From Candidatus Methylomirabilota bacterium (GTDB lineage: Bacteria > Methylomirabilota > Methylomirabilia > Rokubacteriales > CSP1-6): a stretch of DNA of 43,701 nucleotides. Shown here piece after piece: positions 33,001 to 36,000 of the stretch; the stretch's first letter is position 1, and each line of letters begins with the position of its first letter. A program made the position numbers. The DNA lies in NCBI GenBank assembly GCA_046726415.1, contig JBKPAK010000108.1, forward strand, positions 1-43,701. Reading direction: 5' to 3'.

Positions 33001-36000
33001 GACTTCCGTCGAACCCGTCCTCGACGATGGGGACCTGGCGCTGCGCCGCCGTGGTCAGGAGGCGATGGCCGGCCTCCCGCGTGATGGCGAGTCCGGTGGG
33101 ATTGTGGGCGTTGGGCTGGCAGTAGAACAGCTTGGGTGAGTGACGCTCCAAGAGCCGCTCGAGCACCTCAGCCCGCGGCCCCTCCCCGTCCCACGGCACC
33201 GCGAGCAGCTGAGCGCCGAACGACCGGAAGACCTGCAGGGCGCGCGGATACGTGGGCTGCTCGATGGCGATCACGTCTCCGGGGTCGATGAGGGTGCGCG
33301 CGATGAGGTCGAAGCCTTGCTGCGATCCGTTTACGATGAGGATCTCCTCCGGACGCGCCTCGATGCCGACGCGCAGGAGGTAGGCGCTGAGATAGCGGCG
33401 AAGTGGCGGGTAGCCCCCTGCGGGGTAATACTGGAGCAGCGACTCGCCCTCGTCGCGGATGACCCCATTGAGGACCCGCCGGAACGCATCGGTGGGGAAA
33501 AGCCCGCTATCGGGCATGCCCCCGGCGAACGAGATGACGTCCCCGTCGAGGGCCGCTGGCACGCCGTGACTCCGCCGGCGTTCCTCGTCGGCTCCGATGA
33601 TCTGGGCGCTGCGCGAGAAGAGGCCGGACCAGTCGATGGGGGTCGCGCTCCGCGCACGGCTGGGCGGGGTCGGCGCCCCGTCCATCCGTTCGGCGACGAA
33701 GGTGCCTTGTCCCACGTGGGCGCGCGCCAGCCCGGCCGCCACGAGCTCTTCGTAGGCCAGCGACACGGTAGCCCGGTTCACTCCAAGCGCCCCCGCCAAC
33801 TCCCGGGTGGCGGGCAGTTTCACCCCGGGCGCGAGGAGGCGCTCCTGGATGAGCCGCTCGATCTGCTCCTCGATCTGGCGGGCCAGCGGCACCGGCCGGC
33901 TCCGGTCGAGCTGAATGTTCATCCGTGCCATTCTTGCCTCATTTCGATCACCGTCAAGCGCCAATTGGCGCGTCTGGGAACGGGCCAATGATCGGGGACG
34001 GCGTGACAGGAGCGGCCGGGACACGGGCCGGTGCGGTCGCGGAGCCGAGCCGACGCTATAATGGCGGCGAATGGCCGGTCGCCGAAGAGGGGCCCGGCGC
34101 CGATCCCGCGGGGGCGCGAGGCGGAGGACGCGATGAGTGCAGGCGAGGCGCCCGTGAAGCAGGCCATCAAATGGCTCGATGACCGGCTCCAGGACAACCC
34201 GCAGGCGGACCGCGCCAAGCTGGTCGACGAAGCCTCGCGTCGCTTCGACCTGTCTCCCCTGGATGCCGACTTCCTCTATCGCCACCTCGCCACGCGGCCC
34301 CGATCGTGACCGAAGGCCACGCGCGGCTGGTGCAGGAACAGTTCGGACGAAGCGCGGCTGACTATGTTGTGAGCACGGGACATGCCAGCGGCGCCGACCT
34401 GGACACGCTGGTCGCGTGGGGCCGAGCCCTCCGGCCGCGACGGGTCCTGGACGTGGCCACGGGGGGCGGCCACACCGCCCTCGCCTTTGCCGCCTTCGCC
34501 GAGCTGGTGGTCGGGTATGACCTCACCGCACCGATGTTGAATGCGGCCCGGCGCTTCGCGACCGAGCGCGGCGCCACCAACGTCGCCTTCGCCGCCGGTG
34601 ACGTGGAATCGCTGCCGTTCCACGACGCGTTCGATATCGTCACCTGCCGGATCGCCGCTCATCACTTCGCCAATGTGGGCCCGGCTGTCCGTCAGATGGC
34701 GCAGGCCCTGCGGCCCGGAGGGGCGCTCCTCCTCCAGGACATCGTCGGCCACGACGATCCGGCCGCCGCGGCCTTCATTCTGGAGGTGGAACGACGGCGT
34801 GATCCCTCTCACGTGCGGGCCTACCGGGCCGTGGAGTGGAAAGCGCTGCTGCGCGGCGCCGGCCTCACGATCATGGACGAAGCGCTGGTCAGCAAAGTCC
34901 GCCCGTGGAGAGAGTGGACGGGACGGATGCGAATGAGCCAGGACGCGCGCGCCGACCTCGAGCGCTTCGTACGCGAGAGCCCGGCCGCCCGCCGCGAGGC
35001 CTTCGCCTTCCGCCTGACCGGCGACGGCATCGACTGCTTCACGGACCGGATGATCCTGATCCGCGCCGACCGCGACTAGCCGGCCGATGAAAAAGGGTCA
35101 TCGGCGTCGTTGGCTCGTCAGGTGCTCCCTAGGGCGTATGCGACATACGCCTCAGTCGCACCGCTCCTCGCGCAGGCGGACGATCGTCGCCCCCCACCCA
35201 CCGCGTTCCGGCGGGGCGTCGGCGTAGCTCGCCACCAGGGGATGGCGGGCCAGGAGGGCGTGCACGGAGGCTCGCTGCGCGCCAGTCCCCCGGCCGTGGA
35301 TCAGGCGGACCTCGCGATAGCCTCGCACCCGAGCCTCCTGCAAGTAGTCAGCGACGACAGAGCGAACATCGGCCGGCGCGAAGGCGTGCAGGTCGAGGGA
35401 ATCCTCGATGGGAATGCGGATGGGCTCGTCCGTCGCCATGCGCAGTCCTAACGCTCAGAAGCGCGGGCCGGCCATCACGTGCTTTTGCCAGTGCTCGAAG
35501 CTCAGGAGATCCTCCCCCGAGAACTTGCACTGTCAAAAGGTCGCCGCCCGTTCAAAGAAGGTGACGTCCACGAGGATGACGCTCTCCGCGCGCGCCGTCT
35601 CTGCGACCTTCTGGGTCACCATCTGCCGCACGAACGGGATGGGGATTCGCCCGAGGCGGTGCAACACCTCATCGGTGCAGCGGATGCGGGTGCCAGGGAG
35701 GAGGGGTCCCTCGGTCGCGACGCCCACCTCGTCTGGATCGTGCTCGCACGTCTCGGGGACGAGTTGCTGGAGACGCAGGGAGACGTAGTCGGTCACCCAG
35801 GCTTGGAGTCCCGCCTTGGCCTCCTCGGCGCGAAGGGCCGCGCGATCGAGTTTTTCGCCCACAGACTGGACGAGCGTCTCCACGCGGGCCAGGCGCGCCT
35901 CCAAGGAAGCCAGCCGCTGATTGAGGGTCGAGTCATCCATGCGCGGAGAATACCCGCCGGTGGCTCGGGCCGGCAAGGGGCCGGGGTAGAATCGACCGAC

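Follow-up and report, generated by a model that had tools for sequence, protein, structure and literature searches.

Solved PCP_red domains include the C-terminal domain of protochlorophyllide reductase subunit B (2KRU) and the stand-alone Nostoc protein asr4154 (2L09), and these are the best fold matches of the protein described here. In mammalian thioredoxin reductase the C-terminal selenocysteine (Sec) arm has the sequence G-C-U-G, and in this enzyme, as in glycine reductase selenoprotein A, electrons or a bound group are passed on by a selenol beside a thiol on a flexible or exposed segment; for selenoprotein A, moreover, no Cys homologues are known. A U-x-C or C-x-U motif is present in the thioredoxin-like Sec.2, SO_0444, rhodanese-like form 3 and UshA-like selenoproteins (PMC13188914 Table 1), and for almost every selenoenzyme there are Cys relatives that are more abundant (PMC13188914). 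A further point of comparison is SlyX (PRK02793, PDB 3EFG), whose heptads are resembled by the N-terminal 24–45 residues of the present protein.

The gene considered here lies on the minus strand at 35455..35940 of the window, the whole 43,701-nucleotide stretch of Candidatus Methylomirabilota DNA that was analysed, and on sequence grounds it very probably encodes a Sec-decoded member of a new family, an estimate that applies to its identity and not to its biochemical role. Compared with described PCP_red proteins, it has no nitrogenase-like domain, carries a Sec-bearing tail after the domain and scores below the Pfam cut-off. Its R-I-P-x-P-F-V-R motif resembles, by eye, one in the phylum's multi-repeat PCP_red proteins, whereas an invariant C88 is found where the PCP_red paralogues that were read carry Trp (W-T-x-E; also by eye). 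With the U-x-C/C-x-U selenoproteins it shares the two-residue spacing of Sec and Cys, a hairpin placed immediately 3′ of the UGA and a presumed redox or metal role, but its all-helical fold is unrelated, none of their NCBIfam models matched, and while those proteins as a general statement have Cys relatives (PMC13188914), none were found here. The likeness to thioredoxin reductase and selenoprotein A concerns the presumed mode of action only, with no relation in sequence or fold, and in the present protein the arm is attached to a PCP_red-like domain preceded by a long helix. Finally, SlyX has neither PCP_red nor Sec, and the resemblance to it is that of a generic coiled coil, amounting to 15.9 bits against a cut-off of 103 over residues 1–24 only and to E 0.59 against 3EFG. 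This sub-threshold SlyX-like match was the only one obtained from NCBIfam (release 20.0) at E ≤ 1 with Sec written as Cys, in agreement with the zero NCBIfam families reported before.

The family is restricted to Methylomirabilota, and the gene, which comes from a soil Rokubacteria genome, almost certainly represents, as far as sequence can tell, a previously uncatalogued selenoprotein that is stored shortened in public databases. Rokubacteria are abundant in soil and groundwater, and the nitrite-dependent methane oxidiser Methylomirabilis is among their relatives. A Methylomirabilota genome has recently been predicted to hold the largest bacterial selenoproteome (PMC13188914). The family is absent from the 2026 catalogue of 119 families, Deng et al. 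2026 lying outside this comparison, and Table 1 of PMC13188914 contains no PCP_red selenoprotein. A literature search returned no work joining PCP_red with selenocysteine and nothing relevant on PF08369 or asr4154; the available parts of the literature on Rokubacteria selenoproteins hold nothing bearing on the gene, and the available parts of that on Methylomirabilota selenocysteine name no F-U-Q-C-K PCP_red-like protein.

The gene, the predicted protein and its putative centre

Re-translation places the gene, its frame and both TGA codons where the survey had put them, and yields a 161-residue minus-strand product if the TGA at 35535–35533 is taken as Sec. The gene comprises 161 codons and a stop, beginning with an ATG (35940–35938) whose M1 is invariant in an alignment of 25 orthologues, passing through the in-frame TGA of codon 136 (35533..35535) and ending at the true stop, here also a TGA (35455..35457). 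The sequence flanking the first TGA reads ...ERAATF-U-QCKFSGEDLLSFEHWQKHVMAGPRF. GC content by codon position is 0.70/0.43/0.84, which resembles the adjacent real genes (about 0.7–0.78/0.43–0.52/0.84–0.88 in the window), whereas a 126-aa antisense ORF on the plus strand (35408..35788) shows the pattern of a shadow frame (0.43/0.67/0.85), in line with its earlier dismissal as spurious, and is judged not to be a gene.

The predicted order of elements in the protein is a long N-terminal helix, a Cys/His linker with the motif P-E-T-C-E-H, a PCP_red-like domain that opens with the invariant C88, and a flexible tail that opens with U-Q-C. The helix spans residues 3–60 (35761..35934, minus strand) in the AlphaFold2 model, with a mean pLDDT per 10-residue block of 75–94 over residues 1–60; it is coiled-coil-like with SlyX-like heptads, its weak sequence matches are to SlyX and designed coiled coils, and a PDB sequence search with the family profile returned coiled-coil noise only. 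The P-E-T-C-E-H motif (residues 62–67, with C65 and H67; 35740..35757, minus strand) lies in a low-confidence linker. P62 and H67 never vary among 25 orthologues, and each of E63, C65 and E66 is retained by at least 90% of them, but the motif is absent from the divergent L055 form and from a 71-aa short form.

The region of residues 88–132 (35545..35679, minus strand) is a candidate PCP_red-like domain on sequence and modelled structure. Pfam PF08369 matches residues 89–132 over 43 of its 45 model positions with 20.6 bits (E 4.6e-4), below the gathering cut-off of 32.5, and 6 of the 120 listed homologues carry a precomputed assignment to the domain, so that the description of the match as weak here but precomputed for several homologues holds. 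The model has a pLDDT of 86–89 across the domain, and its top two Foldseek matches are the solved PCP_red domains 2KRU (probability 0.99, E 0.038, target TM 0.69) and 2L09 (probability 0.98, E 0.082, target TM 0.64), with nothing reaching E ≤ 0.001. The modelled helices comprise residues 3–60, 90–97, 102–118, 126–132 and 148–156, strand contacts being merely short, and the all-helical model contains no thioredoxin-like alpha/beta fold around the Sec motif.

Directly after the domain follows the U136-Q137-C138 motif (35527..35535, minus strand), in which U136 (written as C) and C138 are invariant, as is C88, and at least 90% of the 25 orthologues share Q137. The short form, which is confined to one genus, retains only C88, the PCP_red domain and the U-x-C (as Y-U-A-C-R), and this trio therefore appears to be the minimal working unit. 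The selenol of U136 would work with C138 and probably also with C88, and we tentatively favour, with somewhat less than even confidence, a mobile C-terminal arm bearing a selenenylsulfide redox or chalcogen-transfer centre. The pLDDT falls below 50 at residues 64–75 and 136–144, that is, in the C65 linker and the tail, and the structure model lends no support to a shared site of C65, C88, U136 and C138.

A rather unlikely alternative is that the centre is a selenolate/thiolate metal or Fe-S-related site with U136, C138 and C88 as ligands and, in the long form, C65, H67, H150 and H154 as further ones, in which case the protein would be a carrier or accessory factor that possibly acts with Mrp/NUBPL-type iron-transfer ATPases. 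Conserved C65, H67, C88, U136, C138, E143, D144, H150 and H154 around the motif are in line with such a site, as is the U-x-C itself, which is the motif of the SO_0444 Cu/Zn transporter selenoprotein family (PMC13188914 Table 1). Relatives of the protein point in the same direction: a 658-aa paralogue in the phylum combines three PCP_red repeats with a rubredoxin-like domain and has an Mrp/NUBPL ATPase as its next neighbour, the representative protein P0080 fuses a Cys-rich C-x2-C pair to PCP_red repeats (by eye), and the orthologue L154, from another family, is located just after Mrp/ApbC-like and Nfu-like ORFs (by eye). However, C65, H67, H150 and H154 are all missing from the short form and L055, so only three ligands would be universal; the neighbourhood link to Mrp/NUBPL is confined to a single orthologous and a single paralogous locus; Rokubacteria loci typically run amidase, selenoprotein gene and a gene for a small Smr-domain protein; and no metal-binding family was matched in NCBIfam or Pfam.

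Decoding of the internal TGA

The survey had counted one TGA in 65 of 66 strong matches in 151 genomes. A re-count gives exactly one internal TGA in 92 of 93 strong family rows (E ≤ 1e-30, 159 genomes). The 251 genomes of the phylum yield 101 strong matches, of which 100 have a single internal TGA; the genome counts are not independent, because the sequences are close kin. The codon is also kept in all eight orthologues outside the family, which have 47–65% protein identity and 56–67% GC. The sole exception among the 101 phylum matches has TTA at the Sec site with the hairpin intact, and one genome has a frameshift in the C-terminal tail.

The tail itself (residues 137–161, QCKFSGEDLLSFEHWQKHVMAGPRF; 35458..35532, minus strand) is conserved as protein in all loci that were read, with the consensus QCKLSGEDLLSFxHWQxH..GP after the Sec. 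In 132 loci (E ≤ 1e-20, the locus sets overlapping), the second stop is found exactly 26 codons after the TGA in 120, as TAG in 59, TGA in 51 and TAA in 10, and conservation collapses 3′ of it. Codons 17–25 of the tail lie outside the hairpin and show codon periodicity (entropy by codon position 0.87/0.62/1.13). The synonymous share in these codons is 0.34 when read in frame but 0.14 and 0.13 in the other two frames, and it is 0.08 past the second stop. The 48 nt immediately following the TGA show conservation at each position of the codon (entropy 0.36/0.25/0.44). Substitutions in the tail, such as L to S via CUG to UCG or F to W in family f13, preserve the protein frame, and the base right after the UGA is always C. 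The earlier claim that the 25 residues after the TGA are conserved is borne out.

A SECIS hairpin (35489..35532, minus strand) begins at the first base 3′ of the UGA and consists of a 6-bp lower stem (CAGUGC/GCACUG) and a 9-bp upper stem closed by the apical loop GGA (35510–35512), which is 3 nt long and located 20 nt from the UGA. The start of the stem is therefore as it had been described, but its length is not, since 16 pairs form in the minimum-energy fold (6 + 1 + 9, interrupted by internal loops) and not the 18 bp claimed. Taken alone, the hairpin folds with −21.3 kcal/mol (z −2.73), and 3 of 200 shuffles fold equally well. A longer fold, of 86 nt spanning the UGA, did not surpass its shuffles (z −0.91). 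The pairs are kept in 96.2% of cells over 40 distinct sequences, compared to 30–45.5% with the partners slid; compensatory changes on both sides occur at three pairs (11 cells), and the covariation score was reached by none of 500 shuffles. Few pairs vary because the hairpin is so conserved, and 5 of 15 never do. The published bSECIS model has an apical loop of 3–9 nt with a G within its first two positions, an upper stem of 4–16 bp, a UGA-to-loop distance of 16–37 nt and an MFE of at most −7.5 kcal/mol (PMC13188914 Fig. 2), and the hairpin lies within all four of these constraints. In the divergent L055 form the upper stem is preserved via a U-A to C-G change and the lower stem is new, whereas the 71-aa short form has an unrelated 8-bp hairpin with the loop CGUGA, 22 nt after the UGA, that likewise fits the SECIS model. 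An Rfam scan of 35300–36100 returned nothing beyond two chance-level snoRNA matches.

The same genome encodes a tRNA-Sec (71 bits, anticodon UCA), SelB (374 bits), SelA (592 bits) and SelD (336 bits), all four above their cut-offs, and its SelD is of the Sec type and carries an in-frame TGA of its own. SelA is above the cut-off in 215 of the 251 phylum genomes, and since it is near-universal, its presence cannot separate the genera with the gene from those without. Taken together, the machinery, the conserved TGA, the coding tail and the model-compliant hairpin support the TGA-as-Sec reading of the survey: the ribosome would read the UGA of codon 136 as Sec, with the SelB-type hairpin at the first base after it presenting the GGA loop 20 nt downstream, and translation would continue for another 25 codons to the true stop.

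Downstream of the gene lies the small Smr-domain gene (35152..35439, minus strand; 95 aa, Pfam Smr 81.3 bits), whose ATG is 15 nt past the true stop and 93 nt past the UGA and is preceded by AGGA. The adjacency, earlier noted in 8 of 9 loci, extends to 76 of 80, with both genes on one strand and Smr second, usually no more than some tens of bases away. Sec decoding might accordingly be pictured as a selenium-sensing switch in which the Smr start is reached only upon read-through of the UGA, and the short distances would suit this, but we regard it as very improbable. Five genomes of two genera that lack the selenoprotein gene retain Smr, 7 of 8 orthologous loci outside the family have no Smr match (L155 alone has one), Smr has its own AGGA, and strong purifying selection acts along the whole protein, which a mere leader would not need. 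Smr was also considered as a dependent partner of the selenoprotein and rejected, as the amidase and Smr adjoin in the related genera without the gene, Smr being located 57–123 nt after the amidase in the three of the five gene-less genomes in which an amidase falls within the stretch examined. From gene order, the adjacency is conserved synteny with no functional dependence.

The TGA could alternatively be an ordinary stop that gives a 135-residue product, the conserved stretch after it being an RNA element that, for instance, controls Smr. Gene callers terminate almost every one of the 120 listed records at F135, the uniform conservation of the first 48 nt is RNA-element-like, and Smr starts close behind the second stop. 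This is more improbable still than the switch, as the last nine codons are periodic with an in-frame synonymous excess, the identity of the second stop varies and yet its position holds at +26, and the changes in the tail preserve the protein frame. Moreover, family f13 retains both tail and hairpin although no Smr follows there, Smr adjoins the amidase without the hairpin element in the gene-less genera, and the full Sec machinery is present in the genome.

The least probable of all is a read-through of the UGA as Trp, Arg or Cys, by near-cognate tRNAs or under a variant code, for which the invariable C after the UGA (UGA-C being a weak termination context in bacteria) and database records with W (P0003) or R (P0102, P0043) at the site could be adduced, but the genetic code is standard since TGA serves as the true stop of the same gene here and in 51 of 120 loci, the position, loop and stem of the hairpin all agree with the SelB-type model, U-x-C is a usual setting for Sec sites (PMC13188914 Table 1), and the residues carried by read-through records, W, R or L, are each one base from TGA and come from single short or visibly damaged records.

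Lack of Cys relatives and shortened database records

The earlier claim that the family has no Cys form is sustained on a broader basis: none was found among 79 matches in 1.84 billion representative proteins, in the 101 strong genomic matches from the phylum, or among the 120 listed of 2479 database proteins. The Sec assignment therefore lacks the backing that Cys homologues commonly give. As no Cys version was found anywhere searched, the data suggest that sulfur is unable to do the job of selenium in this family, which would make it a rare natural case for the question of selenium versus sulfur. In the fullest form of this idea, which we consider distinctly improbable, the family is Sec-obligate and the PCP_red domain presents a C88/U136-x-C138 centre for a covalent selenium intermediate or for a metal or Fe-S unit. 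If true, this would be the first assigned chemistry for PCP_red domains outside protochlorophyllide reductase, and would tie these domains to Mrp/NUBPL-type cluster delivery in Methylomirabilota. More generally, a first Sec site on the PCP_red fold would offer a handle on a domain of unknown function.

The family is shortened in about 2,480 database records, and the putative active-site residues are missing from every public copy seen. The match count at E ≤ 1e-5 is 2479, consistent with the figure given in the survey, and nearly all of the 120 listed proteins are 131–145 aa long, cover 83% of the query and end at F135. As had also been stated, the one full-length record among those 120, P0102, has Arg at the Sec site. 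The listed records bear the names 'hypothetical protein' or 'coiled-coil protein SlyX', the latter because the N-terminus resembles the SlyX heptads.

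Reading frame and translation beyond the TGA

The selenoprotein gene starts on the minus strand with an ATG at 35940-35938 and contains an in-frame TGA at codon 136 (35535-35533) and a second TGA 26 codons further on (35457-35455). Both TGA positions named in the survey's finding were confirmed in the sequence, and the product, if read through, has 161 residues with the C-terminus ...FFERAATF-U-QCKFSGEDLLSFEHWQKHVMAGPRF. The window has a G+C content of 67%, and the G+C of the gene at codon positions 1/2/3 (0.70/0.43/0.84) is like that of the adjoining Smr gene (0.78/0.52/0.84) and RACo-like gene (0.72/0.49/0.88). 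The antisense ORF at 35408-35788 on the plus strand was rejected as a gene, as its values of 0.43/0.67/0.85 form a shadow-frame pattern, bearing out the earlier judgement that it is spurious. The plus-strand ORF 35479-37869, taken as one gene, represents the same kind of shadow fused to the genuine RACo-like gene. Pfam places the Fer2 domain of the latter from residue 192 of this ORF and the GTG at 36001 is its likely start, so that the RACo-like gene does not overlap the selenoprotein gene.

The presence of the TGA is clearly conserved. With the window protein as the query, matches at E ≤ 0.001 are found in 102 of the 159 genomes of the taxonomic family, where the gene had been described as common, and exactly one internal TGA is present in 92 of the 93 strong matches (E ≤ 1e-30) and none in the other. 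A profile of 25 orthologues matches 119 of the 251 genomes of the phylum at E ≤ 1e-5, with one TGA in 100/101 strong matches (E ≤ 1e-39), and all eight strong matches outside the family, which come from families f2, f3, f11 and f13, likewise carry it. Excluding the unpublished genomes G148 and G149, the counts become 90/91 for the family and 98/99 for the phylum; the previous figure was 65 of 66 in 151 genomes. The sole exception (locus L054, G030:C66:21655-22146) has TTA (Leu) in this position, which differs from TGA by a single base, and an intact hairpin. Since TTA is expected to be rare at this G+C content, the change is likely to be a sequencing error or a recent mutation.

The sequence beyond the TGA is also evidently maintained as protein, as the survey had claimed for its 25 residues. 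First, the tail consensus QCKLSGEDLLSFxHWQxHxxAGPRL is little changed across the 50 loci of the family and 8 of other families that were read, and in family f13 it appears as QCKLSGEDLLSWxHWEQHLLEGP... despite 50-54% overall identity and 56-61% G+C. Next, the second stop lies exactly 26 codons past the TGA in 120 of 132 stored loci (E ≤ 1e-20), as TAG in 59, TGA in 51 and TAA in 10; the locus sets behind these tail counts overlap, as they come from two tools. Finally, base variation follows the reading frame in 86 distinct sequences. Entropy at codon positions 1/2/3 is 0.30/0.16/0.96 in the 45 codons of the PCP_red domain before the TGA (synonymous share 0.685/0.077/0.03 in frames 0/+1/+2), 0.36/0.25/0.44 in tail codons 1-16, which hold the hairpin, 0.87/0.62/1.13 in tail codons 17-25 beyond it (0.34/0.14/0.13) and 1.81/1.68/1.84 after the second stop (0.08/0.07/0.06). 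Codons 1-16 are frozen at all three positions, and therefore protein and RNA constraints are combined there; judged by these measures, codons 17-25 behave like ordinary coding sequence and the constraint stops at the second stop. One orthologue, L161 (G224:C7), loses its frame a few codons past U-Q-C-K-L-S-G and seems by eye to retain a shortened hairpin; it is either a pseudogene or an assembly error.

SECIS hairpin and Sec machinery

The 44 nt past the UGA fold into a hairpin whose lower stem has 6 bp (CAGUGC/GCACUG) and whose upper stem, beyond an isolated pair, has 9 bp and is capped by a GGA loop. An 18-bp stem directly after the UGA had been reported; its position stands, but it folds as 6 + 1 + 9 pairs. 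The energy of -21.3 kcal/mol (z -2.73) was equalled by 3 of 200 shuffles. The bSECIS model as summarized in PMC13188914 has a loop of 3-9 nt with G in its first two positions, an upper stem of 4-16 bp, a UGA-to-loop distance of 16-37 nt and an MFE ≤ -7.5, and the hairpin lies within every one of these summarized limits (loop 3 nt, GG, 9 bp, 20 nt, -21.3). In an alignment of 40 distinct 60-nt segments, one of them (L046) from the unpublished genome G148, standard pairs occupy 96.2% of the cells, compared to 30-45.5% when partners are slid by 1-3 columns; three pairs show both-sided changes (11 cells), and the observed covariation score was reached by 0 of 500 column shuffles. Because the sequences are related and 5 of 15 pairs are invariant, the covariation is supporting evidence and not proof. 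In locus L055 the upper stem is kept via a U-A to C-G change and the lower stem is different.

The source assembly (7.6 Mb, 98% completeness) encodes the required machinery, and the organism is able to make Sec. The tRNA-Sec (71 bits against a cut-off of 47; anticodon UCA by ARAGORN), SelA (592 bits) and SelB (374 bits) share a contig (G000:C313:28622-32915), and SelD (336 bits; G000:C223:11994-12938) is a selenoprotein itself because it has one in-frame TGA. Across the phylum, SelA exceeds its cut-off in 215 of 251 genomes; for the high-quality genomes the count is 94 of 104. Comparison among genomes shows SelB-type recoding at UGA136 through the adjoining hairpin, and with it a product of 161 residues.

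Database copies and protein architecture

In 1.84 billion representative proteins, a profile search gave 79 matches at E ≤ 0.001, nearly all ending at profile position 134, directly before the Sec. Three extend further: P0003 and P0043 have the tail motif, with W and R at the Sec site, respectively, and a seemingly frameshifted middle part in P0043, while P0059, a PCP_red paralogue, lacks it. At E ≤ 1e-5, 2479 proteins matched in a word-indexed search (2,480 in the survey). The best 120 of the 2479 are nearly all 131-145 aa (133-135 aa in the survey; coverage 83%) and carry the names 'hypothetical protein' or 'uncharacterized coiled-coil protein SlyX'. Among these 120, P0102 is full length with R at the site, matching the Arg-bearing entry already noted. 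A single base change separates TGA from each of the W, R and L codons, and likewise from the Cys codons; as previously claimed, no Cys form was seen, either among the 79 representative matches or among the best 120 of the 2479, an absence that speaks for a need of selenium in the chemistry itself.

Table 1 of PMC13188914 has 119 prokaryotic selenoprotein families, none listed there with PF08369, a SlyX-like name or an F-U-Q-C-K motif, and NCBIfam release 20.0 holds no matching model, as had been stated. BSepDB is described as built from already reported families (PMC13326102). The gene is a true selenoprotein gene, conserved widely and truncated systematically, and its family is in neither that table nor NCBIfam 20.0. 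According to the review, Deng et al. 2026 put the number of predicted selenoprotein genes in a single Methylomirabilota genome at 63, and also predicted 'potentially novel candidate selenoproteins' (PMC13188914), which may include the present family. The recoding machinery of the family is ordinary, but its fold is unusual and no Cys relative turned up in these searches.

An AlphaFold2 model from a 25-row alignment (mean pLDDT 75) has a single helix over residues 3-60. An ill-defined linker (61-88) leads into a helical domain modelled with confidence (89-132), and beyond a stretch of low confidence (136-144) lies a short helix at 148-156. The best Foldseek matches in the PDB, with weak E-values, are 2KRU, the PCP_red domain of protochlorophyllide reductase subunit B (probability 0.99, E 0.038), followed by 2L09, asr4154 of Nostoc (0.98, E 0.082), and the Pfam PCP_red score of 20.6 bits is under the 32.5 cut-off, as the survey had conceded. 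Conservation is complete or almost complete at C65 and H67 (P-E-T-C-E-H), C88, U136, C138, G142-E143-D144, H150, W151 and H154. A 71-aa short form in genus g47 (L061 in G153; L062 in G155, at L062:1485-1697), whose GTG start shares bases with the stop codon of the amidase gene upstream of it (GTGA), comprises the PCP_red domain with C at the C88 place, Y-U-A-C-R and six more residues (Y-U-A-C-R-A-Q-x-G-A), and the common core is therefore C88, the PCP_red domain and U-x-C. Its unrelated, SECIS-like 8-bp hairpin (GUCGGGAG/CUCCCGAC, loop CGUGA) lies 22 nt past its UGA, with the true stop codon inside the apical loop.

We infer that U136 and C138, probably together with C88, would form the working centre, and the low confidence with which residues 136-144 are modelled would fit a mobile arm. 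A selenenylsulfide redox or chalcogen-transfer arm, which would act in the manner of selenoprotein A or of thioredoxin reductase with its C-terminal Sec arm, is a tentative prediction with somewhat less than an even chance. A metal or cluster site is less likely; in its favor are the extra Cys, His, Asp and Glu residues of the selenoprotein and the company kept by its Sec-free phylum paralogues. One of these, of 257 aa, has three PCP_red repeats, and another, of 658 aa, carries three PCP_red repeats together with two Usp domains and a rubredoxin-like domain (L163:858-2834, G215:C93) and is followed by a Mrp/NUBPL iron-transfer ATPase gene (3012-4193). What probability the redox arm and the metal site leave falls to some other role.

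Genomic neighborhood

In the window, a 95-aa Smr-domain gene lies 15 nt downstream of the selenoprotein gene, and a RACo-like gene (36001-37869, plus strand) with 2Fe-2S ferredoxin, RACo linker, middle and ASKHA C-terminal domains, a member of the corrinoid-enzyme reductive activator family, divergently precedes it; the amidase gene is missing. Three inspected loci have amidase, selenoprotein and Smr genes on one strand, then an opposite-strand methyltransferase gene and a MocR-like gene, with the RACo-like gene upstream on the opposite strand in one. In most of 80 related loci it lies about 1.7 kb upstream, with the amidase gene in between.

The Smr gene, earlier seen to follow in 8 of 9 loci, is found downstream on the same strand in 76 of the 80 related loci, one of the other four leaving no room for it. 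Outside the family, 7 of 8 orthologous loci give no Smr match, with L155 the sole one that does. Five loci of genera g12 and g20 of the same family (L165-L169, in G087, G110, G079, G114 and G081) are without the selenoprotein gene and all keep Smr. The amidase-to-Smr gap is 57-123 nt in the three where the amidase is within the fetched stretch (L166, L168, L169), and in L165 and L167 Smr and the methyltransferase gene are present while nothing of the selenoprotein gene is seen. SelA is mostly kept in these genera (18/21 genomes of g12, 4/8 of g20). Given its retention without the selenoprotein gene and the lack of a match in most of the outside loci, we conclude that Smr is a syntenic neighbor rather than a functional partner, and that the selenoprotein gene is a clean presence/absence difference in a conserved locus.

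In locus L154 of family f2 (G229:C288, oriented, about 380-4819), the ORFs upstream of the orthologue resemble by eye a rhodanese fusion, a Mrp/ApbC ATPase and an Nfu-type protein, and a flavin disulfide oxidoreductase-like ORF follows. A few loci with 69-75% identity (e.g. L077, L081, L098 and L133) come from bins labelled Acidoferrum, Chloroflexi, Binatia or Vicinamibacterales and are probably mislabelled or mis-binned Rokubacteria contigs.
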